From: Candidatus Micrarchaeota archaeon
GTDB taxonomy: Archaea; Micrarchaeota; Micrarchaeia; Anstonellales; Bilamarchaeaceae
Length of the DNA: 64,000 nt
NCBI GenBank assembly: GCA_964647855.1
Contig: CAZYJW010000002.1
Span: forward strand, 244,399-308,398
Reading direction: 5' to 3'
The stretch's first letter is position 1. Each line of letters opens with the position of its first letter. Shown piece after piece: positions 3,156 to 46,900 of this stretch. The position numbers and the translations under genes were made by a program. The notes beneath the pieces were generated by a model that ran no database searches, was not told the DNA's origin, and worked only from the letters and a program-made list of their open reading frames with translations.

Positions 3156-4619
3156 TTATTCCTTGACGTCGTACGCCCTCAGTATGCGCTCAATCTCCTC
3201 CTCTTCCACGCCGATTGAGACCTCGGCCATCACGGCGAGGTTCTTGACCAGCGAGCAGCTCGGCCCCTCCGGCGTCTCGTTGGGGCAGAGCTTCCCGATG
3301 TGCGTCCCGTGGAGGTCGCGGGCCTTGAAGTGCGGGTGCTTCTTTGACAGCGGTGAAATCACGCGCCGCAGGTGGGATATCGTCGAGAGATAGCTCACCC
3401 GGTCCAGGAGCTGCGAGACGCCGGTCTGCCCGGCTATCCAGTTGCCCGTGGCCATCGCGTACTTGATGCGGTCGCCCATCACGTCCTGCCTGATGAGCGT
3501 GTGCACCTGAAGCCTGCGGCCGCGCGCGTCCGCGCGCGACGCCTGGTAGACGAGGTCCTTGATGAGGAACTGGAACGCGTAGCGGAAAAGCTCCTCCATC
3601 ATGTCCCCCGCGAGCTTCACCCTCTTGTTCGCGTAGTGGTCCTTGTCGTCCGGGGCGATTTCCTTGTATGCGACGCGCGTCGCGCGCTCGGCCATCCTGA
3701 CCAGGTAGCGCGCCTTGTCTATGCGCGCGGCCTTCGTGACGCCGATGTGGGGGAGCAGGTAGTTGTCAATCAGGTTCTCCATCCTGTTGAGGCGGAATTC
3801 GGGCGGCTGGCCCGGGGAGAGCCGCCTGCTCAGCATGTCGATGGCCTCGTCCTTCGTGGTGGACTGCTCGCCCTCGAGGTTCAGTATCACGTCGTTCCGT
3901 ATGTGCTTTTCCTGGGTGAAGGTCGCGAGGATGTCGTCGTTCTTCTCGAGGCCGAGCACGCGGAGCATCTGGAGGAGCGGGATGCCGGAGGGCGTCGAGG
4001 GGAATTCCGCGGTATATACGCCGTCGTGGTTGCGCTCGACGACGCACCGGGCCCGAAAGCCGTAGTGCGTGGAGAAAATCTTGGAAACCACGCCGTTCCT
4101 CTCGTTCGTGACCATGAGCTTGTTGGGGACGAGGTCCTCTATCGAGGTGAGGACGCGCTCGCTGCCGTTGATGATGAAATACCCGCCCGGGTCTTCGGGG
4201 TCCTCGCCGTTCTCCACAAGCTCGTCCTTGCGCATGGTCGATAGGTAGCAGAGCTTGGATTTCAGCATGACCGGAAGCTCGCCGATGAACACGTCCGAAT
4301 ACACCGGGCGCTCGACGCCGTTGAACACCGGGATTATCTCGAGGAAGATGGGCGCGGAGTAGCTGAGGTTGCGGAGGCGGGCCTCGTTCGGTAGAATCTG
4401 CCGGTAGCCGCCCTTCACCTCGTAGTAGCGGGGCTGCTCTATCCTCACCTTTCCGAGCTTGAGCTCGAAGCCGTCCACGTTGGTCTGTATCTTCCCTATC
4501 CTGTCGACAACCTGCTGTATCCCCCCGTCGAGGAACTTGTTGTACGACAGCAGCTGCTGGTTGACCAGCGTGTTGACCCTGAAATAAGCCTCGGTAAGAC
4601 CCTCAACCATATAGAACAA
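3156..4619 (-). CDS. rpoB2: DNA-directed RNA polymerase subunit B'' (N-terminal half of split subunit B)
   Basis: 487-aa ORF whose N-terminal region resembles Rpb2/RpoB (for example YFIINGSERV and HPHFKARDLHGTHIGKLCPNETPEG). It lies 7 nt upstream of rpoB'. Split B is typical of many Euryarchaeota and DPANN-type archaea. Confidence 0.95.
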   Translation of the reverse strand: MFYMVEGLTEAYFRVNTLVNQQLLSYNKFLDGGIQQVVDRIGKIQTNVDGFELKLGKVRIEQPRYYEVKGGYRQILPNEARLRNLSYSAPIFLEIIPVFNGVERPVYSDVFIGELPVMLKSKLCYLSTMRKDELVENGEDPEDPGGYFIINGSERVLTSIEDLVPNKLMVTNERNGVVSKIFSTHYGFRARCVVERNHDGVYTAEFPSTPSGIPLLQMLRVLGLEKNDDILATFTQEKHIRNDVILNLEGEQSTTKDEAIDMLSRRLSPGQPPEFRLNRMENLIDNYLLPHIGVTKAARIDKARYLVRMAERATRVAYKEIAPDDKDHYANKRVKLAGDMMEELFRYAFQFLIKDLVYQASRADARGRRLQVHTLIRQDVMGDRIKYAMATGNWIAGQTGVSQLLDRVSYLSTISHLRRVISPLSKKHPHFKARDLHGTHIGKLCPNETPEGPSCSLVKNLAVMAEVSIGVEEEEIERILRAYDVKE

Positions 4620-29475: not shown

Positions 29476-29520
29476 GCCAATCGGATTTGTTTGGCAGCGC
29501 AGAGTTTTAACATTGATGCC

Positions 29521-29810
29521 GGGAACCCGAAACAGGAAACCGAAAAGAGGAATTGGGCAGTTGTGAAATCTCCGACGAGATTTCACTTCCCGCACTTGTT
29601 CGCCGTTGCGAACAAGGCGCACCAAGTTCGCCGAGCGAACTTGATTGTCCCAATTTTCCGTTAGGCAAAACGGAAGACCGGGAACTGGGAACCAAGGGAA
29701 AATTGGGCTGTCGTGAAATCCCTGCGGGGCTTTCACTTCTTCCCAAAATCCCAGCCGGCAAAACGGAAGACCGGAAACTGGGAACCAAGGGGATTTTGGG
29801 CCCGCGCGGG
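29521..29810. repeat. Hairpin-rich block of degenerate direct repeats resembling the element's attachment-site arm (probable integration scars)
   Basis: 45-nt direct repeats lie at 29664-29708 and 29757-29801 (GGCAAAACGGAAGACCGGRAACTGGGAACCAAGG..TTGGGC). AATTGGGC-GT.GTGAAATC modules lie at 29551 and 29701. Perfect 9-bp hairpins lie at 29563-29586, 29595-29616 and 29623-29643. The segment 29530-29558 resembles 36770-36798, next to attR. Confidence 0.7.
29796..29810. repeat. attL core: 15-bp direct repeat TTGGGCCCGCGCGGG (copy of tRNA-Val 3' end)
   Basis: Identical to 36793-36807, which is the discriminator, acceptor and start of the T-stem of tRNA-Val. Confidence 0.7.
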
Positions 29811-30004
29811 TCAGATGTTTCCTGTTTGGTGTTTTGTGTTCTGGGTGCAGCGTCGTGAGTTCTGCGGTTCCCGCATGTCGTTCCGACATGGGGCGCAGAG
29901 AACGAAGTTCTCTGCCGTTCCGTTCCGAGTCCAGCAGGTTTCGGCTGCTGCTTTCCGAACTGTTTTCCGTCAGATCTCATACGGTTCACCTTTATTGGCA
30001 TTAA

Positions 30005-30994
30005 CTAATCTTCGAGTACCAATCCCCAAATCCGTTTCAAAGGTAATTCGGCTTTCAATTCATCATCAAATTTATCGTAATACTTGAAAATCTGTCCGAG
30101 TAAATTCCCGAGGTCCCATAAGCGCATGGAAAAGAATGCATCCTTGGCTTCTGATGTAGCTTGAGAGGTAAATCCACCCGCAGAAACCAATATCCCTTGT
30201 TCAGCTTGGTACTTTGACATGACTCCCCTCAGTTCCCGGACAACCTTCACATCTAAAGAAGAAGATGACGATTTTACCTGCACGCATACTCTGGGTTTTT
30301 CAAATCCTAATGGTCCTGCTGCCGCAAGGATATCGACCCCACCGTCAGGACCAGGAGGAGATAATTTTGTAACGTATCCTTGAGCCTGAAGGATTGCATC
30401 TACCAATCGGGCTAGATTATGCCCCTTAAATTTCGAATTGATATGTTTTACGATTTGATCCTTTGCATTCTCTTCTATATCGACGAGTTCTTCTTCAGTT
30501 ACGGTTTCAGTTCCTTGTGTTGAGATTCCCCCTTCTTGCAGCAGCTTCTTGATACGATTTTCGGCGTCATTTCTTTCAATTTTACCTACGGTTAAAAATG
30601 CCCCCAAGGAGTAGAGAATATCTTGGTCGAAAGCGGAGCGTGGAAGAGTCTTTATCCATTTAACTCGTCGAATATGTTTTATATTATTGGCGAGTTCTTT
30701 GTATTCATATTCTCCCTCAACTTTACCCAAGACAATGGATGATTGCGTCTTGAGTGGAAGCGCCACCAAGTCGCCCACTTTTATCTCATGAATAAATCTC
30801 CAAATCTGGCCTACCTGATTAGCAGCCTTCATTTTCTTTGAATCCGGGTATGTTTTTGAATAGAGTTCAGCAAGTTCTTGTCTAGACTTAATTTTTGATA
30901 AATCGGGCAGCTCCTCCCAACCAATTACAACTACTTTATTCTCTAATGCTCCCGTTTCTCGTTCACCGTAGCTACCAGCTCGAACAAGCCAAAT
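30005..30994 (-). CDS. mrr: Mrr-family (type IV) restriction endonuclease with N-terminal EVE/Mrr_N-like domain; start codon uncertain (first ATG at 30832)
   Basis: The catalytic domain GPDGGVDILAAAG...RVCVQVKSSSS..V.ELRGVM......GILVSAGGFTSQA shows the D...QxK Mrr_cat pattern. In-frame upstream of the first ATG, hand translation gives (I)WLVRAGSYGERETGALENKVVVIGWEELPDLSKIKSRQELAELYSKTYPDSKK, the normal N-terminus of this family. That stretch has no ATG, GTG or TTG; an ATT lies at 30994-30992. Confidence 0.7.
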   Translation of the reverse strand: MWLVRAGSYGERETGALENKVVVIGWEELPDLSKIKSRQELAELYSKTYPDSKKMKAANQVGQIWRFIHEIKVGDLVALPLKTQSSIVLGKVEGEYEYKELANNIKHIRRVKWIKTLPRSAFDQDILYSLGAFLTVGKIERNDAENRIKKLLQEGGISTQGTETVTEEELVDIEENAKDQIVKHINSKFKGHNLARLVDAILQAQGYVTKLSPPGPDGGVDILAAAGPLGFEKPRVCVQVKSSSSSLDVKVVRELRGVMSKYQAEQGILVSAGGFTSQATSEAKDAFFSMRLWDLGNLLGQIFKYYDKFDDELKAELPLKRIWGLVLED

Positions 30995-31155
30995 ACTCAG
31001 AGAATCACCATCCTTTGATTCGTATTATTACTGCATTTCTTTATACCTTTTCGCTTACGCTATCGAGATTGGCATACTATTCTGCGGCACACATCTGACC
31101 AGAAAACCATGCATTGTGGATTTCTAGCCTTCAGTTTATCCTTCGTCCAAGACGG

Positions 31156-31518
31156 TTACGTATCACCACGTTCGTTCATCGTCTTCCTCAGATTGAATAG
31201 CATTGACCGGATTTTCACCAACCGGCCCATGAAATCCAAATGCTCGCGCTGAGGCAGAACTTTGAGTTCCTTCATCATGTCCATCCAGAATTCGCATTCG
31301 TTGGCCTCGCCTATGCAGGTAATTACCTTCTGTTTCATGGCGGCCTTCGATTCGAAAGCGGCCATCTCCGCCAGGTTCGCGCAGATTGATGAGGCAGAAG
31401 CCAGCAATTGCTCCTTCGCCCGATATGAAGTCTGTTTGGTTTCGAAGAAAACGTACAAATCTTTAGATAACCTAAATGCGTCATCGTAGACGACTAGGTT
31501 CTTGAAATTCTGCGTCAT
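31156..31518 (-). CDS. Four-helix-bundle protein (23S rRNA intervening-sequence protein family)
   Basis: MTQNFKNLVVYDDAFRLSKDLYVFF......SASSICANLAE....S.... fits the family pattern. A strong SD GGAGGTG lies 5 nt upstream of ATG 31518. Confidence 0.65.
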   Translation of the reverse strand: MTQNFKNLVVYDDAFRLSKDLYVFFETKQTSYRAKEQLLASASSICANLAEMAAFESKAAMKQKVITCIGEANECEFWMDMMKELKVLPQREHLDFMGRLVKIRSMLFNLRKTMNERGDT

Positions 31519-31984
31519 TGTCCCACCTCCGAATAATACCAATTTCGATAACATTCCCCTTCCCAGAGCCCATTGAACTGACATATCATTTCCATTTCCT
31601 CACCTTTTATTGGCCATGCGGGTTCATTTCCGCACAGACCCCTGCCCGGCTTCCTTAAGTCCGGAATTTCCGGCGAGCTTCACTTCGAAGCCCGGCTCTG
31701 GGAGTTAAGGGCTGAAGAAGTGAAGCGAAGAAATAGCGTTTCGAGTTCTGGGGTTTGGGTCCGAGGGAGCGAGTTCGGTGCGATTTTTATTGCCTTTAGC
31801 GATAGCGACCCGAAGCGATGCCGGAAAGGGCATTATTGGTTTCGGTCGCTAGGCCGAACCGCGAAGTGGCTTTACCATTAAGGCTTTTCCCGGCTGAGCG
31901 AGGGGAAAGGAATAAAATGAGCACGCCGGAAGGCGAGAACGAGCGACCGCGCAAGAAAGGAAGGATTTAAAGTTTACTTTCCTG

Positions 31985-33841
31985 TTGGATAGCATGCGTA
32001 TCTGCCCTAAGTGTGGCCACAAAGCAAGACGTGCAGAGTTTTGTGAAAAATGTGGTGCACATTTAGCACAAATGAAAAAAAAGAGCGAGGGGCCGACTAG
32101 TCCAAAAGCATCTTCAATTTCTCCAGTATTGCTTGCGATTTTTTTAGTTATTATATTAGGTGGCATAGCGCTCGTCATTAGCATTGCAGGGGGATTGGCA
32201 GTGTATGTGGGAGCATTACAATCACCCACGACACTTTCAACGAATATCAAAACAGGAGCAGATGGTTGTGCAGGTACAATCGATTATATTGTCGACCTAA
32301 AGGACGCAAATGCCGAGGGACTGGCTGGTCAAAAAGTCACAATATTTGCAGATGGTGACGAAGTAGAAAAACTGGGAACGGATCAAAATGGCCATCTCGC
32401 AGCCACTAAGGAGATACCGATAGAATGGTGCGGGAAAACAGTTAATTTTACAATTAATTACGGCGGGGATATTTTTCATAAAAATGTTTCCGAATCAACA
32501 ATAGTCACACTAAAAATACCGACAAAGTTGCAACTTTCGGCGCCAAGCCAAGCCGTAAATAACACAGAGACGATAGTCAATTGCACATTAATCAATCTGG
32601 TTGATAATAATCCAATAGCAAACAAAAGCATCGTAGTGCCCAATAGCGTTTCAATTCAGACAAAAACAGATGCGCAAGGAGTTGCTCAGATACGAGTAGT
32701 ATTCAATGAAACAGGGATCAAAAAGATAAAGGCAACTTTCAATGGGGACGATTCATACCTCAGCTCCGAAAGTTCGCTCAACGATGTGCTTGTTGTTCCA
32801 GAAACTTGTAGCGATGGCACGATTGTGGGGGAATGTTCGGATAAAAACCAGGGGCAGTATTGCCTCAAACTTCCAAAAAACGTTTCTACAACACTAGAAG
32901 TTAGTACTGCATTGATTCCGAATTGTGAAGTATGTGCGTGCGCAACTGGCCTCGTATGTTATAGGGATGCATGCATAGCCGAAGAACAAAGAACCACACA
33001 ACTTATCGAAGAACTACAGGATAGTATCGTGTACGTAGAGCACTCTTATGCAACTGGTTCTGGCGTTATTCTCTCACAGAGTGATGGGGAAACCATTATC
33101 TTAACGAATAAGCATGTGGTGGAAGGAGCCAGCAGTATAGGTGATGTTGAGATAACCACCTATGGCCAAAAGACAACTTATGCAAAAAACATACTTGTTG
33201 CGCCAAATGAGATGGACTTGGCTATAATCTACGTTTCAGGGACGTATGGTACGCCTGCTAAGATAAATTACTCTGAGCAGCACTCAAAAGGTCAAGCAGT
33301 TATAGCATTGGGCTCCCCACTGGGGATTCAGGGGAGTGTATCTGATGGAATAATTTCTAATTTTATTTATGATATCCCCTCAGATGTGTATTCTTACGAT
33401 GTAATACAAACTGATGCAGCAATTAATCCAGGTAACAGTGGGGGAGGCCTATTTTTGAAAAGCACGGGTAGCTTGATAGGCATCAACACACTTGTATTAC
33501 CGTCGGAATATGGGCAAGAAGGACTTGGATTCGCTATCGATATTAAGGAATTGCAAGCTCTACCGTCTTATTCAAGTTGGGAAACCTTTACACCAACCCC
33601 GAGGTGTTTCGATGGAACTCCCTATGGTTCTTGTTCTATCTTTTTCATAGGTAAAATGTGCTTGGGTGGATACCTTGAGGATAAATGCGAATTTTGCGGT
33701 TGCCTATCGGGCCAGTACTGCCCATCCAATGGAAAGTGCTTCTCCTGCCCAGCCGGATACACACCTTATGAGGATTATGGTGGAGAGCCGTTCTGCTGTC
33801 CGCCAGGGACAATCGGGTATGTCGGGGGATACTGTTACTAG
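31985..33841 (+). CDS. Membrane-anchored trypsin-like (S1C/HtrA-type) serine protease with N-terminal zinc ribbon and Cys-rich extracellular regions
   Basis: Zn ribbon CPKCGHKARRAEFCEKCG. TM helix ISPVLLAIFLVIILGGIALVISIAG. Ig-like repeats. Protease triad contexts TNKHVV (His), DLAIIYV (Asp) and INPGNSGGGLF (Ser). The C-terminus is Cys-rich. The start is TTG 31985 or ATG 31994. Confidence 0.75.
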   Translation: MDSMRICPKCGHKARRAEFCEKCGAHLAQMKKKSEGPTSPKASSISPVLLAIFLVIILGGIALVISIAGGLAVYVGALQSPTTLSTNIKTGADGCAGTIDYIVDLKDANAEGLAGQKVTIFADGDEVEKLGTDQNGHLAATKEIPIEWCGKTVNFTINYGGDIFHKNVSESTIVTLKIPTKLQLSAPSQAVNNTETIVNCTLINLVDNNPIANKSIVVPNSVSIQTKTDAQGVAQIRVVFNETGIKKIKATFNGDDSYLSSESSLNDVLVVPETCSDGTIVGECSDKNQGQYCLKLPKNVSTTLEVSTALIPNCEVCACATGLVCYRDACIAEEQRTTQLIEELQDSIVYVEHSYATGSGVILSQSDGETIILTNKHVVEGASSIGDVEITTYGQKTTYAKNILVAPNEMDLAIIYVSGTYGTPAKINYSEQHSKGQAVIALGSPLGIQGSVSDGIISNFIYDIPSDVYSYDVIQTDAAINPGNSGGGLFLKSTGSLIGINTLVLPSEYGQEGLGFAIDIKELQALPSYSSWETFTPTPRCFDGTPYGSCSIFFIGKMCLGGYLEDKCEFCGCLSGQYCPSNGKCFSCPAGYTPYEDYGGEPFCCPPGTIGYVGGYCY

Positions 33842-33922
33842 GATTAAGCAGATTGTGCAAAGATAAATGAGTATGAGTAAAGCGAGAGAATGAATGAGTT
33901 CATACTTTTGCACCATAAAAAA

Positions 33923-34738
33923 CTAGATTTTAGTTGAATTGCTCCAACGATGTTCGAAAATAGCTTTTAAGTTCGGCAAGAATCCATGAACAAAATCTTT
34001 TGGGAGAAATATTACGAATGATTCCTTATTGCCTAAGTCCTTGATACCATGGCCGATTACGACAAGTGCATTTTTTGCGATAATGTATCGGTCATGCAAT
34101 TCATAACCATTAGAGTAGCGACGCAGTTCTATATTCTTGAATTCAGATTTGAAGCGTTGTAGATTTTTATTAAATTTTTCTGCATTTCTCTGCTCTTCTC
34201 CACCCAACTCGGAAGATAAAAATCGTATTTTTCTATCATTACCAAACAGAGATAATACATGAAATGTCCCGTTTCCATAATATCGATCAACAATGCATAG
34301 TTCACCCTCTAAGCGTTCAATAATTTTTGGGAATTCTTTATTGAGATCAGACCAAGACTGTTCACCTGAGTAAAAGTGAACGCCCATGGAAGAGGTGAGA
34401 AAACTGTTCGCTTGTAAGAATTTCCTGCCAAGAACCGTAATCTCGTAATATACCTTTCCCGCTTCCTTATGAGCTTTGACCTTTTTACCCGCGCGTGCAA
34501 ATGCCCGGAGGATTGTTTTTTCGTCCAGTGGAATTTCCCTAAGTTGAAATAGAAGGTAACTGATGGCTTTTGCAGTTAGCCTATTGACGACTCCACTGTC
34601 CTTTGTGATCTCTAAAATCCATAATGCCTGCGCTAGCGGTTTCAAATCGGTTGGATTTGGGAATTTGGATAAATCCTTTTTTTTCAATGCCCGGCAGATC
34701 TCTTCCTCGGAGGCGTAACCCATCATATCACCAAACAT
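33923..34738 (-). CDS. Hypothetical protein: N-terminal winged-helix-like region plus C-terminal PLD-fold MIT_C-like domain (HDRY motif)
   Basis: The C-terminal half LCIVDRYYGNGTFHVLSLF..RKIRFLSS.....LQRFKSEF..IELRRYS..ELHDRYIIAKNALVVIGHGIKDLG follows the MIT_C PLD-like pattern as I recall it (DPYI...LT...HDR.I...G.GLD). It overlaps the upstream gene by 11 nt. Confidence 0.5.
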   Translation of the reverse strand: MFGDMMGYASEEEICRALKKKDLSKFPNPTDLKPLAQALWILEITKDSGVVNRLTAKAISYLLFQLREIPLDEKTILRAFARAGKKVKAHKEAGKVYYEITVLGRKFLQANSFLTSSMGVHFYSGEQSWSDLNKEFPKIIERLEGELCIVDRYYGNGTFHVLSLFGNDRKIRFLSSELGGEEQRNAEKFNKNLQRFKSEFKNIELRRYSNGYELHDRYIIAKNALVVIGHGIKDLGNKESFVIFLPKDFVHGFLPNLKAIFEHRWSNSTKI

Positions 34739-35057
34739 ATGCCTTGTATTTCTTTTCTGCCGTTGATTTTGTGGCTTTCCGAAGGAGTTTTCTATTTGCT
34801 AAACGAAGCAACGCAACTGTGACTCGGTCTGATTCACAATGGTACGTTCCTTGGAGTTTTTTATGTACTTCATCAGCGGTTTTTGGGCTTGAGAAAAAGC
34901 CATTATCACGAAGAGCAAGGATGTGGTCGGGGAGTCTGAGATTTCCTTTTGCTGCGTGGTGGGAATTTTTTTTTGCAGGCTTACCTTCAAGTAAGGCCAA
35001 CCTCTCTTCATGATTTTTTAATAACCGCTCAACTTCATCAAACTTAGTTATCGTCAT
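34728..35057 (-). CDS. Hypothetical small protein (coiled-coil plus winged-helix-like C-terminus), middle gene of a 3-gene operon
   Basis: Start chosen at ATG 35057 (MTITKFDEVERLL...). An SD GGGGTGG lies inside the end of the upstream gene, with a 4-nt gap to that gene's stop. Confidence 0.55.
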   Translation of the reverse strand: MTITKFDEVERLLKNHEERLALLEGKPAKKNSHHAAKGNLRLPDHILALRDNGFFSSPKTADEVHKKLQGTYHCESDRVTVALLRLANRKLLRKATKSTAEKKYKAYVW

Positions 35058-35061
35058 ATTG

Positions 35062-35646
35062 TCAACCACCCCTAAGAGTCGAATTCTTCCTAAGCTCTTG
35101 GAGGGCACGAACGCCTGCGTCAGATATCTGAAAGCGCCCTCTACCAGCCCGATCAAACCAGAATTTATATCGAACCATGTCCTGAGCCAACGTCCGATAA
35201 TTCTTTATTAGTGGGAGTTTGCTTGCACCACCCCTCACTAAGGCGCGATATACTTTTTCGAGGTCAATAGTTGAAAATGTCGATTGACCCTTCCGGTCAT
35301 AGAGCTCAGCTATAAGTAGGAGAGCCTCCGGTGATTTAATTTTCTCCGTGTCCTGAATCTCACTTTTAAGAGCCGCCAGATCGCTAGAGGAGATATCAGT
35401 TGCCTCTTCTGGGGTATTGCCTTTGAGCAATCCGGGGGTTTTTCTTTTCGAAGGCGGGAGGACAGGATTGTCAGCCTTTCTCAGCGCACCTGGATTAGAG
35501 AGAAGATGCGTGAGGATTGTCTCGAAGGCCTTAGTTTTTATATCGCCTTCGGGCATTTCACTTATGGCTTCTTCCGCCTTTTTCCTTGCTGCAATAATTT
35601 TTTCAACGTCGTCCATATACTCACCCACATAACCTCCATCTTGCAT
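35062..35646 (-). CDS. Hypothetical protein (helical N-terminus, disordered linker, winged-helix-like C-terminus), first gene of a 3-gene operon
   Basis: 194-aa ORF in the AT-rich element. The C-terminus reads FSTIDLEKVYRALVRGGASKLPLIKNYRTLAQDMVRYKFWFDRAGRGRFQISDAGVRALQEL. Confidence 0.55.
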   Translation of the reverse strand: MQDGGYVGEYMDDVEKIIAARKKAEEAISEMPEGDIKTKAFETILTHLLSNPGALRKADNPVLPPSKRKTPGLLKGNTPEEATDISSSDLAALKSEIQDTEKIKSPEALLLIAELYDRKGQSTFSTIDLEKVYRALVRGGASKLPLIKNYRTLAQDMVRYKFWFDRAGRGRFQISDAGVRALQELRKNSTLRGG

Positions 35647-35780
35647 TATTTAGGATAACAGTTTAAATACATATGTTTCCACGACATAAAATTTCATTTA
35701 ACTCACAAAATGTGAAGAGTAAAATGGTTGGATATAGGAAAAAATTCTGTAGTGTATATTGTCTATGCCGACGATATATA

Positions 35781-36668
35781 TCATGAGCTCTCTTGCATTC
35801 GTTTAATTTTCACTAAAAATCCATCTTCCTGGGCCATGGCAATGCTTCTGTAAAGCTCCTCCTTGCCAGTATGGATATACGTCATCGTCGTTTCCACGCG
35901 GTGGTGGCGTGCAAACTTGCTCGTCAGAACCACGTTGCCGTTGTTTTTCTTTGAAAAATTCGTTATGGCGTAGTGGCGGAGGCTATGGGTGGTGAGGCGG
36001 TGGAGCTGCTTGGGTATGCTGCCATCGGCTAAGCCATAGGTTTCATCCAGCTTCAGCTTCCGAATCGTCTGCCGGAAGACGTTGCGAACGTAGTTCTTGT
36101 CAAGGTAAGGACAGGGGTTTCGGTCGGGGAAGGTTTCGGCCCAGAAAAGATGGCCTTTCGCCTTGGCTATCGCATCCTCGTAGTCGCTGATATACTTCAG
36201 CATCTGCTCAAAGAGTTGAGGGGGGATGGGGAGGCTGTCGGCACGGCTGCCTTTCTGGTTGTCTATCTTGAGGTCTCGGGTTTCGAGGTTTAGGTCCTTC
36301 ACATGGAGCTTGACGGCTTCCCCTATCCTGAGCCCTAAAACAGCCTGGAAAGTGAAAAGCAAGGCCATCCTTGGGTCTTCCACGGCATTCAGGAAGCGGA
36401 TAAGCTCCTGCTCCGTGAAGCCTTTGTTCATCGTCCCGTATTTCGGTATCCGCCTGCGCAGGAAACGCCGCTTTCGGGCTTCTGACAGGATTTCTATGGC
36501 CCGGACGAGCCTTTGTTTGGGGAGGTAGCGTCCAAGCCATTCTAAGGTCTCCTTGGCTTCTGGCCAGAGCTGCTTGGTTTCGTGTCTAGAGGGTTTTGAG
36601 TTCTGATTGCACGGGGCCCAGAGGCTGGTTTTGGGTTCTGTGTCGTGGGTTCTGTTCGCTTTCGGCAA
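35781..36668 (-). CDS. Tyrosine recombinase / integrase (start uncertain; track ORF runs to 36872 through the tRNA)
   Basis: Catalytic-domain signatures LGLRIGEAVKLHVKDL (Arg), HSLRHYAIT (H-x-x-R) and ARHHRVETTMTYIH (His...Tyr). Directly adjacent to tRNA-Val. TTG 36668 is the first plausible start outside the tRNA; the next ATG is far downstream (MNKGF). Confidence 0.8.
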   Translation of the reverse strand: MPKANRTHDTEPKTSLWAPCNQNSKPSRHETKQLWPEAKETLEWLGRYLPKQRLVRAIEILSEARKRRFLRRRIPKYGTMNKGFTEQELIRFLNAVEDPRMALLFTFQAVLGLRIGEAVKLHVKDLNLETRDLKIDNQKGSRADSLPIPPQLFEQMLKYISDYEDAIAKAKGHLFWAETFPDRNPCPYLDKNYVRNVFRQTIRKLKLDETYGLADGSIPKQLHRLTTHSLRHYAITNFSKKNNGNVVLTSKFARHHRVETTMTYIHTGKEELYRSIAMAQEDGFLVKIKRMQESS

Positions 36669-36792
36669 GGCCCGAACTGGCGGGAGAGCGAACAGAGCCG
36701 TTTCTTGGCCCCAATCGGGCAGAAGTTGTGGCAGAATCTCCGACGTAAAAAGGCAAAACTCAGAACTCAAAACAGAAAACCGAAAACAAGAA

Positions 36793-36807
36793 TTGGGCCC
36801 GCGCGGG
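36793..36807. repeat. attR core: TTGGGCCCGCGCGGG within the tRNA-Val 3' end
   Basis: Identical 15-mer to 29796-29810. Confidence 0.7.
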
Positions 36808-36941
36808 ATCGAACCGCGAATCTCCCGCGTGTGAGGCGGACGTCTTAACCAGAATCGAAGCCGGAGGCGCACCTCAGGCCTTTTTCCAGGGTTTTTGGCA
36901 TAAGATAGACCTAAGCCAAAAAGCCTTTCGACTACGGGCCC
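36794..36941 (-). tRNA. tRNA-Val (anticodon CAC) with a roughly 70-nt non-canonical intron in the D-arm
   Basis: The reverse complement reads GGGCCCG-TA-GTC[...insert...]TTCTGGTTAAGAC-G-TCCGC-CTCACAC-GCGGG-AGATT-CGCGG-TTCGATC-CCGCG-CGGGCCC-A. The acceptor, anticodon and T arms fold perfectly. The D-arm halves GTC and GAC are separated by about 70 nt containing the TTTTTGGC/GCCAAAAA and GAGG/CCTC helices. The exact splice points are not resolved. Confidence 0.8.
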
Positions 36942-36976
36942 AACAAATGGACGAGAACTAATCGTCCGGAAGGATT

Positions 36977-36985
36977 TTTATATTA
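36977..36985. promoter_or_regulatory. Shared AT-rich TATA element (TTTATATTA) between divergent tRNA-Val and tRNA-Gln
   Basis: It lies about 35 nt from the 5' end of each tRNA gene (36941 and 37019). Confidence 0.5.
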
Positions 36986-37018
36986 TTCCGAGGCTTTCTC
37001 ATCGGTTGATTGTCGCAC

Positions 37019-37131
37019 AGCCCCGTCGTCTAGTTCCGCCTTTTAGTAAAAGGCGGCCTAAAACGAGGGACATTGGTCAAGGATAGTGGACTTTGGATCC
37101 ATTGACGGCAGTTCGAATCTGCCCGGGGCTA
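37019..37131 (+). tRNA. tRNA-Gln (anticodon TTG) with a roughly 39-nt non-canonical intron in the D-loop
   Basis: AGCCCCG-TC-GTCT-AGT[TCCGCCTTTTAGTAAAAGGCGGCCTAAAACGAGGGACAT]TGGTCAA-GGAT-A-GTGGA-CTTTGGA-TCCAT-TGAC-GGCAG-TTCGAAT-CTGCC-CGGGGCT-A. The insert contains a 9-bp hairpin (CCGCCTTTT/AAAAGGCGG). Boundaries are approximate. Confidence 0.8.
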
Positions 37132-39572: not shown

Positions 39573-40928
39573 ATGGCTGAGGACCGGGAGGGGTTCCTCG
39601 CGCACTGCGGCGAGATGCGCCGCCTGGCGCTCTCGTTCAAAGAGCCCCTGGTTGTGCACCATTACGACGCGGACGGGCTCAGCTCCGGCGCGATTGTGTC
39701 GGGGGCCCTCCGGGACGAGGGCAGGCCCTTCAGGCGCTCCTGCATAAAAAAGCTGGACGATTACGCCATCGAATCGCTCCGGCACGAGAAGGAGATAATA
39801 TTCGTGGATTTGGGCGGCGGGAACCGCAGGGTGGACGAGCTTGCGGACGTGCTCATAATAGACCACCACCAGACCGAGGGGATAGGGAAGCCGCAGGCCA
39901 ACCCGCTAATGTTCGGAATCGACGGCGGACGCGAGCTCTCGGCATCGGGCACGGCGTACTGCGTCTTCAGGAGATTCCCCGACCTCGCGGTGGTCGGGGC
40001 GGTCGGCGACATGATGCGCCCGCTTTCGGGCATGAACCGCTGGGTCATGGAGCAGGGCGTCGCCTCGGGCGAAATCCGTGTCGAGGAGGATTTGCGCTTC
40101 TACGGCCGCCACTGCAGGCCCCTCGTGCAGTTCCTCGCCTACAGCGACGACCCGTACATCCCGGGCATATCCTACCGCGAGGACCGCGCCGCAGCGCTGC
40201 TTTCCGACCTAGGGATTCCGCTGGAGTCTCCGGCTTCTGCAGGCGGCGCGCCCGATTCACGCGCCGGGCGGCGCGTCTATGCGGACCTTTCGGATGGCGA
40301 GAGGAAGGCGCTTGTGAGCGCGCTCGCGAAAATCCTCATATCCTCCAACAGGCTCCGGAGCCCGGACGAGCTCATCGGCGAAAGCTTCGTGTTCCCCCGC
40401 CGGCCGAAGGACGAGGCCTTCGAGGCGGACGAGTTCAGCACCCTCCTGAACGCCTGCGGAAGGCATTCGCAGCCGGACATAGGGGTGAGGGTCTGCCTGG
40501 GCGACGAATCTGCCCGTGCCGAAGCGCGGAATCTCCTCGCCTTGCACCGCAGGATGCTGCGGGGCGGGATTTCCTACGCTTCGGGGAGGACGCAGGATTT
40601 CGGGGCGTTCTTCCTGCTGGACGGGCGCGGGAAAATAGATGAGGGGATAATAGGCGTGGTCTGCGGCATGGGCCTGCAGCAGGGGTGGGGCAAGCCGATA
40701 ATCGGGCTTGCGCTGGGCGAGAATGATACCGTGAAGGTCTCCGGGCGCGCCCCGAGGGCGCTCGTCGCATCCGGCCTGAACCTCGGCGCCCTTATGAAGG
40801 AGGCGGCCGCCGCATGCGGCGGAATCGGCGGGGGGCACAGGATTGCCGCCGGCGCGTCGATACCTATGGATAAGGTGAATGATTTCCTGCTTTCCGCAGG
40901 AAGGCATCTGAACAACGATCAACAGTGA
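39573..40928 (+). CDS. DHH/DHHA1 phosphoesterase, archaeal RecJ/GAN (Cdc45-like) family
   Basis: Motifs VVHHYDADGLSSG (DxD), IFVDLGGG, LIIDHHQ (DHH), and GGGHRIAAGASI (DHHA1 GGGH) near the C-terminus. 451 aa. Confidence 0.75.
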   Translation: MAEDREGFLAHCGEMRRLALSFKEPLVVHHYDADGLSSGAIVSGALRDEGRPFRRSCIKKLDDYAIESLRHEKEIIFVDLGGGNRRVDELADVLIIDHHQTEGIGKPQANPLMFGIDGGRELSASGTAYCVFRRFPDLAVVGAVGDMMRPLSGMNRWVMEQGVASGEIRVEEDLRFYGRHCRPLVQFLAYSDDPYIPGISYREDRAAALLSDLGIPLESPASAGGAPDSRAGRRVYADLSDGERKALVSALAKILISSNRLRSPDELIGESFVFPRRPKDEAFEADEFSTLLNACGRHSQPDIGVRVCLGDESARAEARNLLALHRRMLRGGISYASGRTQDFGAFFLLDGRGKIDEGIIGVVCGMGLQQGWGKPIIGLALGENDTVKVSGRAPRALVASGLNLGALMKEAAAACGGIGGGHRIAAGASIPMDKVNDFLLSAGRHLNNDQQ

Positions 40929-43900
40929 GTGATGGGCATGACCGGATTCAAGATGAGGGGGGAGTCAGGGGCCCAGGGCGCTGCTCCGGCCATATCCGAC
41001 CGAACAGGAGGCGCCCTGGCAAATCAGACTCTGGCGGATTTCAACGCGGTCTGGCAAAGGCACTTCGGGGGCACCGCCATAGCGGCGATAGCCGAGGTCT
41101 CTTCAAGGCACGTGTCGCTGATTGCCGGCAGCATCGACCGCAGGCTCGGGATAAGCGATTTTCTCGGCTCCACCTCAGGGCGGCCACAGGCGGCAATCAT
41201 CTCCAACCTGTCGAACCAGGCCCTCATAGCCGCCCAGCAGGACCAGATGCAGCGGGCGATAGCCCTGATTAAGGAGGCGGACGAGAAACTGCAGGCGGCC
41301 GTATCGGTGGACAGGCGCGGCAAGGACCTGGACGAGGCGGAGGCAAAGGAGAAGGCGAAGGATGAGAGCGCAGTATCCGAGGCGAAGGAGGCCCTCACCG
41401 CCTCGATTTCCGACGCGGGAACCGCCAGCGCGGGCAGGATGCAGATGATAGGCGAGGCGGTCGGATTTTATGCAAGGAACCGGGCCGTCCTAGGCCTTCC
41501 GGGGATGGAGGAACAGAAACGCGCGCTTCTCAATTTCATCACGGCCCTCGGGCGCGAGGCGAAGGAAGGCGGCTTGTTCGAGAAGGAGGCGAAAGCGGGG
41601 GAATTCGCTGCAATCCGGGGGCGCATTGAGCCTGTGGCGATGGAAAGGACCGGCTTCGCGCTTGCGGCGGCCACCAGCGCGATGGAAAGCGCAAGCCGCG
41701 CATTGGGGCTCGGCGGCGTTTCCGCGGAGTTCAGGAAGGCCGCCATGCGCATCCGGGATAATGCGGAAAGAATCCGCAATGCCATGCGGGAGGGCGGGCA
41801 GGCCCCGGAGGAGCAGACGCGCGGGCTGATGGCGGCCGCAACCCTCGCGAAACAGGCGAACGAGGCGCTGTCCGCCATGGGCGGGCGGCTGCGGGAGCAG
41901 GTGAGCACGATATTCGCGCGCATGCTGGATGCGGGACAAGCCGGGGACATGAAAACCGCCGGGGTCCAGGCATTCATCGCAAGGGAGTGCGCGCTTGCGA
42001 AAGCGCCGGCGAGGGAGGCCCTGGGCGCGATAAGCGCGTCGCTCGAATCCGGCAAAATCAGGCTGTCGGAGGCTATTGACGGCGCTGCGAAATACATATC
42101 GGGAATCCTGAAAGGGAAGGCGAAGGGCATAGTGCATGAGGGCGCCCTCAATCCGCTAAGGAAACTGATTGACAGGCTCGATGGGGGCAAGGCGACGGTC
42201 AACGACCTGGAATCCGCAAGGATCGCAGCCGGGCTTGCGGAGAGCTACAAGAAGGACATTCCGGCGCTTTCGAAGAACGCAAAGGCGCAGGAAGGCGCGA
42301 AGGCGATTTATTCGAGGGCGTTCTCGGCGGCTGCCGGAGGGCTTGTGCGGTTCGCCTCGCTCCAGGGCCGCATCGCCGGGCTTTTCGGGAAGAAGAGGAT
42401 GTCCAAGGTCAGGGATGGCCTTGAGGGGATTTCCAACAGGGCTGAGAGGGCCGCGAAGCTGACCATCCTGCACCAGCTTGTCAGGGAGGGGATGAAGCCG
42501 GATGAGGCGGCATTGCTTTGCGCGGAGGGTGACGAAAGCATCCTGAACTCCTACAAGGCGATGGCCGACCCGGATGCAACGCTTGAGGCGGAAGGGAAGA
42601 TGCTGGAGATGTCGGTTTTCGCAGCTGAGCTGAGAAGCGTGCTTGCCAAGAAGGCCCTTGGGGACGAGAGCGGGATATACAAGGCGGCGGTGGAATGGCT
42701 CGACGAACGGATTATATCGGCGATAGCCGGCGGCGGCCAGCCGCACGCGCAGGACAACCGGGCGCTTTTCGCCCTCGCGGCAATCCACAGTGGCGACTCG
42801 CGCGCGATGGCGCAGTTCCTCCTTGAAGAGCCGGAGCTGCTGGGCCTGATGGACGGCGTCGGCGGCATCGAAACGGCCCTTGAGGGGGTCCACGGGGATG
42901 AGAAGGCGGACGTCCAGGACATCCTCTGGAGCGCGCAGGAGGCCGTCTTCGGGGGGAGATTCGCCGAGGCGGCGGGGCATATGGTTGCCGCGAGCGCCGC
43001 CGCCAGGCTGGGGGGGAAGGACGGGAAGATGCTCGAGGAGCGCAGCTATGGCGCGGCATGCGAGGGCACCGTGAGCGCCCGGACGCTGCTGTTCACCGCG
43101 AGGGCCCAGCTCGACAGGGCGCTGCACGCCGGCAGGGGCGACACTGAGTCGGACGCATACTTTGATGCCGCCATAATCGCGTACGAATCCGGCGACTTCA
43201 ACGGGGCGCAGGCCGCGCTTTCGCTCGCGAACCTTTTCGCGAGGGCTAAATCCGCCGGGCTCTCCGACCCGCGGGGGCAGGAGGCGGCTGCCATGGCGAG
43301 GGAAATCCTCGGCGATTACCGGGGCGCTTCCGGCAGGCCGCTTTTCGGCGGATGCGGCCTTCGCGGCATGATTGGCGGGGATGGCACGCTGCTGGAGCGG
43401 CTGGAGGGCGCGGCTGCGGATGCGGGCCCCATGGCGGGATGGCTTGCCGGATTCTCCGGCGAAAAGAAGCTGGCGGCCCTGGCGCTTCGCGTGAGGAAGG
43501 CCGAGATCGGGCTCGGCCGGGCGGAGATGGGCGCGGCCCTTCTTGCGGTCACGGACGGCAGATATGACGATGTCTATGCGGGGCGGGAGGACAGATACGC
43601 AGACAAGGCGGCATCGGCGCAGAAAAAAGGCGATGCCGTGAATGCTGAGCGCTGGAGGAAGGAGGCGGAACGCGTATCGAATGCGCGCGGTCTCGCGAAG
43701 GGGGCCGCGCTGGCCTACGAGGAGGGCGCGCAGATGCAGGAGCAGGAGTTGGACGGGATGCTCGATGAGCTCGCCCGGGGCGGCGCGCCGTCCGAAAGCG
43801 GCGCACTGAAGGACGGGGCTCTGGCGGCAGGCCTCTCGATAAGGGCGATGGAGGCGGCCTCGGTGCTCCATGACAGCATAGTGAACGTGCGCACGGACGA

Positions 43901-46900
43901 TAAGGAGGATGGCCGGGAGGAGCTGGAGCGCGCCGCGGAGGGATTCCTTAAGGCGGCGACCGCGTTGGAAAAGGGCGCCGGGGCGGATGCGGCCCTTGTT
44001 TCATATGCGGAGTCCGACCTTGCATCAGGTATGGTGGCGGTCGGGAAGCAGAAGCGGATACAGCGCGAGGAGAAAAGGATAGAGAAGAAGCTGCTCGAGA
44101 TGATTGCCGGATGCCGCAGCAGGAACGAGGAAAACAAGAGGGAGTTCATCGATTCCGGGCTGGACGCGCCGCTCACTGACATCTATACCGACCATGGCAC
44201 GGTGCGTGCCGGGGAGGCCGGCCGCCTCGTTAATTATGAGGAGAGGGCGAGGGAGCTCGACGATGCCGAGGAGGATGCGCTGGGCCGCAGATTCCGGGAT
44301 TCGTTCCGCCATATCAGAGCCGCGGAAATCGGCATGGAAATCGACAGGTACAGGGCGGGCGTCGAGGTCGAGTACAGGCGCCTCTATCCCAAGCTTGAGA
44401 CCGCCTGGAGCGAGGAGGGCCTCCAAGCCGTCGAAGTAATGAGGCAGATGGGCCGCGAGGACATGCAGAAGGACCTGTTTTCTGCGGACGCCGCACTCAG
44501 GCGGGGGGATATGGAGGAGGCCGCCGAAGCCATAGCGGGGTTCGGCACAAGATTCCGGGTGGGCGTCGCAATCCAGGAAATCGCACTCCAGGAATGGACG
44601 CTCGGCCGCATATCCTCGGGCCTGGGCGGAATGGCGGAAGCCGCGGCCGGATTCGGATTCGATGAAAAAGTCGTGAAGGAATCCGGCGTGGATTTCACCA
44701 AGGACGCGGGATACGCCATAGAGAAGCTGGGCGAGCACATAAAGCTCAAGAAGGCGACGAACCCGTTTTTCGGATTCGGCGCGCACGATGAGAGCGTTCG
44801 GGCCGTGAGAGCCATCTCCGGGGCAAAGAGCATGGCCATGAAGGCGGCGGAGCTGAAAAAGGCAGCGGACGATACCGCCTCGGCCCTTCGCTCCGAGCGC
44901 ATGGAGCTTCGGGAGCGCCAGGAGGCCGGGGACGGAGACCGTGCCCTTGAGGAAGGGAGCGGAAGGATAGGGAAGCACTTCGAGTCCGCCTCCGAAATAT
45001 CCGGGCGCTATTCGCGAATCGGAGATGGATTCCAGCTTTGGTCCTCGTGCGCGGGGCAGATGCTAAACCTGCTGGACGGGGCCGATTCCATAGAGAAGGC
45101 CCGCGGAAGCGGGGGCTCGCAGGGCGTGCAATACCGCCAGATACGGGAGGATGCGGGCGTTCTGGGGCAGCTTGCGGGCATGGTGGCGTCCGACCCTGAA
45201 GGCGCGGTTGCTTTGGTCCTTTCCGGCCAGTCGGTCGCATACCGGATGGGCACGGGGGATTTCAAGCTGCGCGAAGAGCATGGCGGGTACGCCGAATCGT
45301 CCATACCCCTCCAGAGCCGCAGCGGCAGCTTCGCGGAGCTCTTCGCGCAAGCCAACGAGCGCTCCCTGCATGTCGCCGAGGCTCTTTCGGGAGGACTGTT
45401 CGGAAAGAGGGGGCGCTCCCTCCCAATCGCCAAGGATTACACCGGCCTGGTTCTCCTGAACGCGGGCATCGCGCAATCCGGGGGGGCGCTGAAACAGGTG
45501 GCGCTCGGGCAGAGGGAAAGGGGCGTGGTTTCGCGTGCGCTGAACGGAAGCGGGGGGGCCAACCAGATGATGGGCATGTTCTTCTCCGCCCCGGCGACCC
45601 TGACCAGCTTCTTCTCTACGGACGAAGGCGAGGCGGCGCTCGACTCCATAGTCGGCGGCCTGGAGGCGGGCTCTTCGGCATCCGAAGAAATAAGCAAATG
45701 GGCGCTCCGGGGGGAGCGCATGGATGCTGAGGCTCTCGGACGCCTCTCCGCCCGGATTGACGAGGGCAATAAGAGCGCGAAAAAAGCGTATGACCGGGCA
45801 ATCAAGGAGGGCCTGAGCGACGAGAGCACCGCGAGGGGCGTGCGCGCGCTCTTCGATATGGGCCTTTCAATAGGGCTCACGGCGAGCGGGTTCGGCTCGG
45901 TGGCCGGAATATACGGCGGCACCATGGCCCTGCAGGAGCTCGCTTTCCAGAGCGACAGGGCGGGGGGTTTCGACAACCTTTCCACTTTCGACCAGGTGAT
46001 GGGAGTGGTGAACGTCGGGACCGGATTCGCCGACGGGGCGACGTCATTCCTCGGCGAAATCGGGAAGGCGGGTGGCGCGCTGCACAGCATGCGCATGATT
46101 GACGCGGGGTTCTCATCGTCGGGCCGGGCCGGCAGGATGGCGCTCAGTTTCATGCCGGGTGGGGCCGGCTCCACATGGGCCGGCCGCATCCTCGGCTCGA
46201 CTTCGCTAATTTCCGGCGCGGCCGGCATCCCGATGATGGTTGCCGGATACGCCGAAGGGAAGATGAACTGGTTCGAGTTCGGCGTGGGATTGGCCGGTTC
46301 CCTCCAGCCGGTCGTCGACCACGGCACCGCCTCGCTCGGCTATCGCGGAATGAAAAAACTCGTTCCGGAGGAAGGGGGAGGAGGGCGCGGCGCAAGGGCG
46401 AAGGCCGCAATCCGCGGCTTCGTGTTCGGTTTCACGGGCAACTCTATAATTGGCGACACGGAGGCATACTCGTCCGTACACGCCATAGAAGAGCATGGGA
46501 GGGCGCTATCGAAGCTCAAGGAATCCGAAAGGTCGGATTACTTCAAGGCCGAGGCCATGGCGGAGAGGGGGCTCGGCAGGCCCCTTGAGCCGGAGGAGGG
46601 GGCGTACCTCGCATCGATAATCGGCGGAGGTTCTGCGGGAAAGGACGCCGTTGTGGAGATGCTCGCGAAGCCGAGGATGGATGCCGATTTCCGGATGTAC
46701 CTCATGCGGAAGGCGGGCGAGGAAATCGACCTTTCCCAATTCAACGCGGATGAGAGGCGGTTTCTGGAAGGGCTGCTGCCCCTTGACAAGGATGCCGCAT
46801 GGAACGCGATTGCGGGCAGGGAATACCGCGAAGCGGAGCGCATTCTCGTCGGCGAAGGCATCGAGGCTCCGGGCTTCCACCCGTTTGCAAGAAGGGTTGG

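Follow-up and report, generated by a model that had tools for sequence, protein, structure and literature searches.

A winged-helix gene cassette with a predicted MIT_C-type phospholipase D-superfamily protein on a small archaeal integrative island: a candidate conflict module

In a stretch of 64,000 nucleotides from a Candidatus Micrarchaeota archaeon (assembly GCA_964647855.1, contig CAZYJW010000002.1, positions 244,399 to 308,398 of the forward strand; the whole stretch is called here the window, and positions refer to it), three closely spaced genes lie co-directionally on the minus strand, and we refer to them in their order as gA, gB and gC. A previous reading of the letters alone, made with no database search (the sequence-only reading), had taken them for an operon of orphan winged-helix-like proteins, the last one with a phospholipase D (PLD)-like domain, and had proposed a novel defence or maintenance module. 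The three open reading frames (ORFs) are all found in the sequence at the coordinates then given, with the claimed spacing of 4 nt between the gA stop (35062) and the gB ATG (35057), and they are real genes and not chance ORFs, because homologues were retrieved at E-values as low as 7e-118 for gC, 2e-37 for gB and 1e-47 for gA. The genes and the candidate signals around them are as follows.

35062 to 35646, minus strand: gA, 194 aa from the ATG at 35646 (ORF call and homologues P0125-P0133)
34728 to 35057, minus strand: gB, 109 aa (ORF call, conserved partner of gC)
33923 to 34738, minus strand: gC, 271 aa, or 267 aa from the ATG at 34726; the predicted effector
35066 to 35072, minus strand: GGGGTGG, Shine-Dalgarno-like sequence for gB, within the 3' end of gA and 8 nt before the ATG at 35057
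35662 to 35669, minus strand: TATTTAAA, candidate archaeal TATA box, ~34-41 nt upstream of the GTG at 35628
35705 to 35717, minus strand: TCACAttttGTGA, small perfect palindrome seen by eye in the spacer upstream of gA
33917 to 33922, minus strand: run of six T, candidate archaeal oligo-T terminator directly after the gC stop

The start of gA is more likely the GTG at 35628 (188 aa, compare P0125), which has GGAGG ahead of it at 35633-35637. The 11-nt overlap between gB and gC described earlier exists only if translation of gC begins at the ATG at 34738. In the database entry for gC (P0001, 267 aa), as in the homologues aligned with it, the first residue is M5, whose ATG at 34726 lies 1 nt past the gB stop; the coupling is tight either way. 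Similarly, the GGGGTGG sequences that had been proposed as internal Shine-Dalgarno sites are present for gB only, inside the end of gA, whereas gC has at most a GGTGAT abutting its start codon. An AT-rich spacer of 134 nt, with TATTTAAA inside it, separates gA from the gene of a tyrosine integrase. Both this box and the T6 run would fit archaeal promoter and terminator habits; a scan for bacterial-type promoters and terminators around the operon gave nothing above chance and no hairpin terminator. The palindrome TCACAttttGTGA, too short for significance on its own, may serve the winged-helix proteins as an operator.

The protein encoded by gC carries most of the interpretation. A sequence search retrieved 141 homologues, and an alignment of 65 sequences (A1) is the basis both for the conservation counts given below and for an AlphaFold2 (AF2) model, which has a mean predicted local distance difference test score (pLDDT) of 92.3 and consists of a winged helix, a flexible hinge or linker helix and an alpha/beta domain. 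The parts of gC are listed here; the PADLOC results in this and later paragraphs are profile hidden Markov model matches to which PADLOC's own coverage thresholds were not applied.

34400 to 34711, minus strand: N-terminal winged helix of gC, residues ~10-113, with the order H-H-H-H-E-E-H in the AF2 model
33926 to 34387, minus strand: C-terminal PLD-fold domain of gC, residues ~118-271 (Foldseek, PADLOC)
34286 to 34288, minus strand: codon of the invariant D151, in the motif VD(P/R)(Y/F)YG after strand 2 of the PLD-like domain
34088 to 34096, minus strand: codons of H215-D216-R217 (CAT GAC CGA), the HDR motif, a variant of the PLD HxK motif with Arg for Lys

Searched against the PDB with Foldseek, the C-domain of the model matches FAM83/BJ-TSA-9 (4urj), Zucchini (4gem), NucT (6ehi), Nuc (1byr), PLD3/4 and MITD1 at E = 5e-6 to 4e-4, with target TM-scores of ~0.55-0.58 for MITD1 (2ymb/4a5z) on PLD-domain chains, and a library of viral structures returned PLD phosphodiesterases, a NucT-like nuclease and small winged-helix proteins. 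By model and structure comparison together, the C-domain has the alpha/beta fold of the PLD superfamily. Sequence profiles are less explicit: gC itself has no Pfam family and no MIT_C match at E <= 1, while weak MIT_C (PF16565) matches occur in 21 of the 65 homologues (best 2.4e-4) and MCM4_WHD matches in 17. Neither the gC sequence nor the A1 profile found anything relevant among PDB sequences, where a match to the LytTR domain of AgrA (E = 0.04) was judged spurious.

Within the alignment D151, D216 and R217 are invariant, H215 is kept in at least 90% of the sequences, and K233, D234, K238 and S240 are near-invariant. The most conserved columns lie in VDRYYG (D151, Y154, G155), RFLSS, ELHDRY (H215-Y218), GHGIKDLG (G229, G231, K233, D234) and K238-E239-S240, so that VDRYYG, RFLSS, HDRY and GHGIKDLG, the motifs that the sequence-only reading had quoted, were well chosen. 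The central motif of gC reads H215-D-R217-Y-I-I-A-K222-N...G229-H-G-I-K233-D234. In a 2025 analysis of the Menshen system (PMC12065111), two features define the predicted effector domain PB-PLD1: strand 2 is followed by an acidic residue, and strand 5 is preceded by HDR. The placement of D151 and HDR in gC, relative to strands 147-150 and 218-220 of the AF2 model, matches this definition. The same analysis relates PB-PLD1 to MIT_C, as found in MITD1, and to the C-terminal parts of certain BrxL proteins, and predicts an enzymatic activity that it did not assay (PMC12065111). With structural matches to PLD nucleases and to MITD1, weak MIT_C hits and the conserved Asp and HDR, the assignment of the C-terminus to a PLD/MIT_C-like domain is upheld: as modelled, gC consists of a winged helix and a PLD-superfamily domain, the latter of the MIT_C/PB-PLD1 type.

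The best Foldseek matches that extend over both domains of gC are TrmBL2 (5bpd, 3.8e-9) and TrmB (3qph, 3.7e-6), and they bring in a different explanation, in which gC would be a TrmB-like ligand-responsive regulator or chromatin protein, its PLD-like domain would bind a small molecule, and gA and gB would help to regulate genes of the island on which the operon lies. It would agree with this explanation that all three proteins are of a DNA-binding type and that the MIT_C domain of MITD1 has no known catalytic activity. However, the TM-score to TrmBL2 is only ~0.35, the Pfam TrmB and Regulator_TrmB profiles match neither gC nor any of the 65 homologues, which excludes membership of that family and leaves a likeness in structure only, and the conserved polar cluster of D151, HDR, KD and KES resembles an active site.

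Further arguments come from the genes that accompany gC. We collected 57 non-redundant gC loci, 55 of them with upstream DNA sufficient for judging, and trained a gB profile in successive rounds on every ORF at the loci retrieved, with no use of gene position. A gB-like gene lies within 1.6 kb upstream of gC on the same strand at 48 of the 55 loci, and two or more do so at 14; 67 of the 68 gB-like matches fall inside this upstream interval, which contains 7.4% of all ORFs. Since position played no part in training the profile, this positional result is informative. Almost invariably, between one and four paralogous small winged-helix proteins of this type are encoded ahead of gC on the same strand, often with overlap. 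At the N-terminus they have a helix (amphipathic in gB itself) or a short beta-strand/helix module, and the rest is a winged-helix-like domain, for which the pattern is GFF..PK....I...L......Y.......L..L.....L.R......W.Y. Some gB-like proteins (in L003, L068, L083 and L086) carry at the N-terminus a strand-helix module (..T I....G..I.IEG...EV..I) that resembles the N-terminal module of a 153-156-aa family described below. The best PDB match of the gB profile (A3) is the BlaI repressor (1p6r, E = 0.016), and hhalign relates the gB-type domain to the N-domain of gC with a probability of 77%.

The winged helix claimed for all three proteins is thus found at the N-terminus of gC (AF2, Foldseek) and, weakly, at the C-terminus of gB, but could not be verified in gA, whose AF2 model has a pLDDT of 56, with residues 1-45 alone confident, and for which hhalign gives a probability of 40%; the C-terminal domain of gA is a putative winged helix. 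This protein consists of an N-terminal helical hairpin, a low-complexity linker and a helical C-domain, and its hallmark is an invariant K-x-K-A-F-E-T-I-L-x-H-L-L-S in the hairpin (alignments A2 and A4). Neither gA nor gB gave a meaningful match in Pfam, NCBIfam or PADLOC. Partners of the gA type accompany gC in only four cases (~4 of 56 loci): the window, L001/L002, with the same gA-gB-gC order (190, 113 and 273 aa), L015, and a chimera in L053. Iteration of the gA profile across the gC loci stalled at 4 matches, a metagenome scan with the gA motif gave 12 loci, mostly on short contigs, and three gB-like genes, but no gA, accompany the closest relative of gC (L086, 68% identity). In a more distant clade, a family of ~140 aa that we call X stands beside gB at 23 loci, with no detectable relationship to gA. 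Co-occurrence of the three genes, a test attached to the original proposal, therefore gives a divided answer: gB travels with gC, and the full trio recurs at L001/L002, but the conserved unit is gB and gC plus a variable number of small winged-helix genes, gA is an occasional member, and the exact trio is a minority form.

Relatives of gA and gB also precede proteins other than gC. At one locus (L068) a gB-like gene (123 aa) and a gA-like gene (176 aa, 52% identity) are followed by a 227-aa protein and then by a restriction-modification-like gene; the N-terminus of the 227-aa protein resembles the winged helix of gC (hhalign 79%), and its C-terminus is a Hypoth_Ymh domain (Pfam 1e-33; PADLOC PD-Lambda-3_B 5e-19; Aga_HEPN 2e-15). 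At two others (L069/L070), a 153-aa protein and then a 147-aa chimera of the gA N-terminal motif with a gB-type winged helix come ahead of a 307-aa protein with a TIR domain of the CAP12/PycTIR type (Pfam 6e-23, PADLOC PDC-S35), and an X-like protein stands last. Partners of these 153-aa and chimera types precede, in the soil loci L072-L081, a family of 229-286 aa that we call E3, which also stands behind the closest relatives of the window gB, in L083/L085 (e.g., L085 1081-1848). The E3 proteins match nothing in Pfam or PADLOC; they carry the motif IPRAxRxVY(D/E)x(R/S)NxRxxxH..G.(V/I)DPN..DA and a C-terminal winged-helix-like segment, take the effector position behind partners of the gA/gB types, and are a candidate new effector domain. 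At a further locus (L067), a gA-like gene and a fused double gB-like protein are followed by a protein with a weak DUF4145 match, and hhalign relates E3 neither to this protein nor to Hypoth_Ymh. The R-N-x5-H part of the E3 motif gives an impression of HEPN-likeness, and nothing firmer. The family of 153-156 aa (L069 1220-1681, L072-L081), which is the first gene of the soil cassettes, carries the module (I/V)KFEGPKEFVEEMVAKY at its N-terminus and a winged-helix-like domain at its C-terminus.

That TIR and HEPN-type domains take the same position elsewhere argues that the C-domain of gC is an effector rather than a ligand sensor, and constant partners with alternative PLD-like, TIR and HEPN-type domains form a pattern familiar from known immune and toxin systems. 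Taken with the spread of the family across phyla and domains of life described below, it makes the TrmB-like regulator or chromatin protein an unlikely explanation of gC. A reading along the lines of ESCRT-II, suggested by several winged-helix proteins together with an MIT_C domain, was set aside, the alternatives at the effector position being TIR and HEPN-type domains.

The proteins are not orphans, as had been supposed. A profile search of 1.84 billion cluster representatives (50% identity) gave 1,456 proteins of the gC type at E <= 1e-3, 529 at <= 1e-10 and 192 at <= 1e-30, and homologues exist for gA and gB too. The two-domain architecture of gC is stable, since nearly all of the best 150 matches have 250-280 residues; the winged helix is the variable part, differing between subfamilies, because many homologues have only the C-terminal 55-60% in common, at 60-68% identity. 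In GTDB the family is found among archaea in Methanosarcinales, Bathyarchaeia, Heimdall- and Freyarchaeota, Nitrosopumilaceae, Micrarchaeota and Woesearchaeota, and among bacteria in Chloroflexota, Planctomycetota, Verrucomicrobiota, Acidobacteriota, Patescibacteria and others. Such a patchy spread across phyla of both domains is typical of genes that move horizontally. A phage or plasmid origin is without support, because no relative of gC was found by tblastn in PLSDB (72,556 plasmids) and the INPHARED phages, or in a scan of IMG/VR.

Among defence profiles, the C-domain of gC matches two PADLOC models of the candidate PDC-S05 (PDLC04869, 2.6e-10; PDLC04879, 5.3e-9), and both are matched by all 65 aligned family members (best 4.5e-15). 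Weaker matches are those to NsnC (E = 4e-4, model positions 137-229 of 242; 32 of the 65 members match) and to DrmC (E = 0.02; 19 of the 65). A representative of PDC-S05 reduced the plating of T7 and T5 ~1000-fold in E. coli and was described as a protein with a Virulence_RhuM domain (preprint 10.1101/2024.09.26.614923), a Pfam domain with no match in gC or in its 65 homologues. Membership of Menshen (NsnABC) was rejected, since gA and gB have no PADLOC match to NsnA or NsnB and the N-domain of gC is a winged helix and not an inactive PIN domain. DISARM was likewise rejected, the DrmC match being so weak and no helicase, DUF1998 or methylase having turned up on the island in the ORF list and Pfam scan.

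The operon lies on a small island, of which the main features are these.

29796 to 36807: integrative island of ~7 kb, with the 15-nt direct repeat TTGGGCCCGCGCGGG at 29796-29810 and 36793-36807 and a drop in GC content
30005 to 30832, minus strand: Mrr-type restriction endonuclease (Pfam Mrr_cat 8e-27; PADLOC PDC-S02 8e-113, full length)
31156 to 31584, minus strand: four-helix-bundle protein of the 23S rRNA intervening sequence (IVS) family (Pfam 23S_rRNA_IVP 2e-16, TIGR02436 8e-18)
31985 to 33841, plus strand: protein with zinc ribbon, Ig-like and trypsin-like protease domains (Trypsin_2 1e-21, Zn_ribbon_3; Big_1 / Big_3_5 below threshold)
35781 to 36431, minus strand: tyrosine recombinase (integrase; Pfam Phage_integrase 1.9e-15, residues 153-337 of a 363-aa ORF)

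The genes follow each other in the order Mrr-type endonuclease, 23S rRNA IVS protein, protease-domain protein, gC, gB, gA and tyrosine integrase, the start of the last being uncertain because its listed ORF extends into a tRNA-like region. The GC content is 0.41-0.48 across 30001-36000 and 0.54 at 36001-37000, against ~0.61 in the immediate flanks, and the right-hand copy of TTGGGCCCGCGCGGG is the 3' end of a tRNA-like gene. The mobile island of the original proposal is thus borne out by integrase, repeat and GC drop, but the Mrr gene, which had been placed next to the operon, lies ~3 kb from gC. No replication or virion functions turned up among the island ORFs, and the island looks like a small integrative element with a cargo largely of conflict-type genes.

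These features bear on another explanation, a segregation or maintenance apparatus in which gA and gB would be centromere-binding winged-helix proteins like AspA or ParB, with gC as an accessory. The gB profile does touch the archaeal plasmid partition protein AspA, yet at E = 0.33, which is not significant, and PB-PLD1 owes its name to its association with ParB in Menshen (PMC12065111). The element is integrated and carries no replication genes, neither a ParA/Walker NTPase nor a ParB came up when its main ORFs were scanned with Pfam, the plasmids of PLSDB hold no homologues, and repeat searches near the operon gave nothing above chance and no array fit for a centromere. We consider such an apparatus highly improbable.

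Several observations on the island stand apart from the operon. Proteins of the 23S rRNA IVS family also occur beside the gB-gC pair in an unrelated metagenome locus (L005 1561-1950, L006 1562-1951), with an ORF6N-domain gene, and may form a recurrent association with gB-gC. The protease-domain protein (618 aa), convergent on gC, has its zinc ribbon at the N-terminus, a hydrophobic segment by eye and a Cys-rich C-terminus, and is an odd cargo for so small an island. To the left of both TTGGGCCCGCGCGGG copies, ~55 nt are ~60% alike (29490-29813 and 36725-36810 regions); two more degenerate copies of this element end stand in tandem (29490-29575 and 29635-29720), there is also a 61-nt repeat pair (29648-29708 / 29741-29801), and previous integration events at this site may have left all of these behind. 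On the right, two tRNA-like genes (36793-36942, minus strand; 37019-37131, plus strand) have good acceptor and T arms and interrupted bodies. Both reach 26 bits in Rfam against a gathering score of 29; ARAGORN makes no call by default and calls them only with its intron option, in models that do not convince. Possibly these are archaeal tRNA genes with introns; the attachment site of the island is supplied by the first. Host-type genes in the window include a split RNA polymerase B'/B'' (1298-3148, 3156-4619) and an archaeal RecJ (39573-40928), the latter followed directly, in the high-GC host flank, by an ORF of 2,805 aa (40929-49346, plus strand).

Elsewhere, some cassettes lie in classic defence or mobile contexts. 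L001 is surrounded by two DNA methylases, a PvuII-like gene, UvrD-PDDEXK and GmrSD; L003 by a methylase, PDDEXK, an integrase, PemK/RHH and HicB; and L009 by a relaxase-like protein, a reverse transcriptase, recombinases and a pair of ResIII/SWI2-SNF2 and methylase. The nearest 140 large neighbours at 55 genome loci include N6_N4 methylases (5) as well as D12 methylase, Mrr, Fic and ResIII (2 of each).

Because relatives of the partners accompany TIR and Hypoth_Ymh proteins, a role in conflict or maintenance is the best reading of the operon, in keeping with the module proposed from the letters alone, apart from the exact trio as its unit. More specifically, and with moderate confidence, we favour a mobile conflict cassette built like a toxin-antitoxin (TA) system, in which gA, gB and gC would serve anti-virus or anti-plasmid defence by abortive infection or restriction, with gC as the effector. 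Transcription of the operon would start at an archaeal promoter ahead of gA, and translation of its genes would be coupled. The gB protein would dimerize, probably through its N-terminal helix, gA would contribute its helical hairpin module, and both would bind gC, DNA or both, keeping gC inactive or setting its target, possibly with repression of the operon. An infection cue would then release gC, or concentrate it on DNA via its winged helix. Since there is one catalytic-type motif per chain, a complete site would need a dimer. In the single-motif PLD nucleases Nuc, Zucchini and BfiI, two domains pair into one active site, and BfiI is moreover a PLD nuclease domain joined to a separate DNA-binding domain. 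Two PLD-like domains of gC could pair in the same way, and the paired site would hydrolyse phosphodiester bonds of nucleic acids, so that the invader would be destroyed or the cell arrested.

The nearest rival to this cassette overlaps with it in mechanism: an addiction module that stabilises the island, with gC as toxin and gA and gB as DNA-binding antitoxins and autorepressors, and no dedicated anti-virus role. Its separation from abortive infection is partly semantic. The gene order is suggestive, with small DNA-binding proteins first, a larger enzyme-like protein last and tight coupling, as are the position on a 7-kb integrative island, the PemK/RHH and HicB modules close to the cassette at L003, the many copies that stand alone among housekeeping genes, and the HEPN and TIR alternatives, which are classic toxin domains as well. 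Nonetheless, two to five partner genes are unusual for a type II TA system, the effector has a winged helix of its own, and a related PADLOC candidate is reported to be antiviral (10.1101/2024.09.26.614923). We regard pure addiction as rather improbable.

Several points weigh against a defensive gC effector, and we gather them here. The sequence of gC departs from the canonical HxK(x)4D(x)6GSxN motif: Arg replaces Lys, G-x-G-I-K-D stands for GSxN, and position 222 is Lys where many homologues have Asp; because the HKD motif is not kept, catalytic competence is advanced here strictly as a hypothesis. To our knowledge, none of the MIT_C/HDR-type domains has a demonstrated activity. The top structural matches of gC, TrmB and TrmBL2, are regulators or chromatin proteins and not nucleases, and the copy of the domain in MITD1 binds membranes, to go by the title of reference 87 in PMC12065111. 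The PDC-S05 alignment spans positions 184-282 of 306 of the model and residues 133-240 of gC, that is, the C-domain only, and the tested RhuM-domain representative may be only distantly related to gC. The roles of gA and gB are our inference, and the structure of gA is poorly predicted. Finally, most of the remaining neighbours at the 55 loci are housekeeping enzymes, so that, despite the classic contexts of some loci, enrichment of the cassette in defence islands is modest; with such neighbours, it behaves as a small self-contained insert.

A convenient test object is gC itself, with 270 residues, two domains and more than 1,000 relatives, for the HDR-type MIT_C/PB-PLD1 domain that is a predicted effector in Menshen and BrxL, and activity of gC would bear on whether the PLD-like domain of MITD1 descends from an enzyme. 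Apart from CRISPR and restriction-modification, the immunity of archaea has been little mapped (PMC12988326), and a compact cassette on a tRNA-integrated archaeal island beside an Mrr enzyme bears on it. More tentatively, and as a possibility of which we are less than persuaded, the cassettes could represent a widespread, undescribed class of immune systems of archaea and bacteria, whose constant sensor or adaptor would be made up of small winged-helix proteins, neither an NTPase nor a cyclase taking part. On this reading, the enigmatic HDR-type MIT_C domain, which human MITD1 and some BrxL proteins have in common, would for the first time stand in a clear effector context. The constant part would then consist of N-terminal modules (amphipathic helix, short beta-strand/helix module, KAFETILTHLL hairpin) shuffled on paralogous winged-helix proteins, and the variable part of a winged-helix-tagged MIT_C-type PLD, a CAP12/PycTIR-type TIR, Hypoth_Ymh or E3. 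A sensor or adaptor made of winged helices only, with swappable PLD, TIR and HEPN-type effectors, would be a new design principle in defence and a new handle for finding effectors, such as E3.

Compared with known systems, the cassette shares parts with several of them. The earlier statement that the combination matches no named system holds for Menshen, DISARM, TrmB and partition, but has to be qualified for PDC-S05: both of its models match every aligned member of the gC family, whereas the N-terminal two thirds differ, and gC is accompanied by gB-type partners at most loci, unlike the stand-alone single gene that defines PDC-S05. With the PB-PLD1/MIT_C domains of NsnC, BrxL and MITD1, gC shares the PLD fold, the acidic residue after strand 2 and HDR for HxK before strand 5; its domain follows a winged helix, however, where the others follow an inactive PIN (NsnC), an AAA+/Lon (BrxL) or an MIT domain (MITD1), and in place of the NsnA/NsnB or BREX partners it has small winged-helix proteins. 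The single-HKD PLD nucleases (Nuc, NucT, Zucchini/PLD6, BfiI) have the same compact domain of ~150 residues with one motif per chain, but not the H-D-R...G-x-G-I-K-D of gC. TrmB and TrmBL2 resemble gC in the succession of winged helix, helix and a C-terminal domain that Foldseek places among PLD-fold matches, and differ from it in sequence profile, in the low TM-score, and in that gC has a catalytic-looking cluster and resides on mobile cassettes with swappable effectors.

At the level of whole systems, a constant partner set with alternative effector domains is also found in CBASS, Pycsar, Thoeris, Menshen, Avs and others and in type II TA; a further likeness is that the effector gene follows genes for small DNA-binding proteins. 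The architecture of type II TA fits what the genes alone reveal, small upstream DNA-binding proteins coupled to a larger downstream enzyme-like protein. Unlike CBASS, Pycsar, Thoeris, Menshen and Avs, the cassette has no recognisable cyclase, NTPase, STAND, SMC or other sensor, and its constant part consists of small winged-helix proteins. In the limited body of literature searched on PDC-S05, NsnC, MIT_C, PB-PLD1 and Hypoth_Ymh, where silence is only absence of evidence, a winged-helix partner set with alternative effectors is not described. The MIT_C/PB-PLD1 effector class and the PDC-S05 candidate models are thus known already, and what appears to be new is the set of winged-helix partners and the alternative effectors that follow them.

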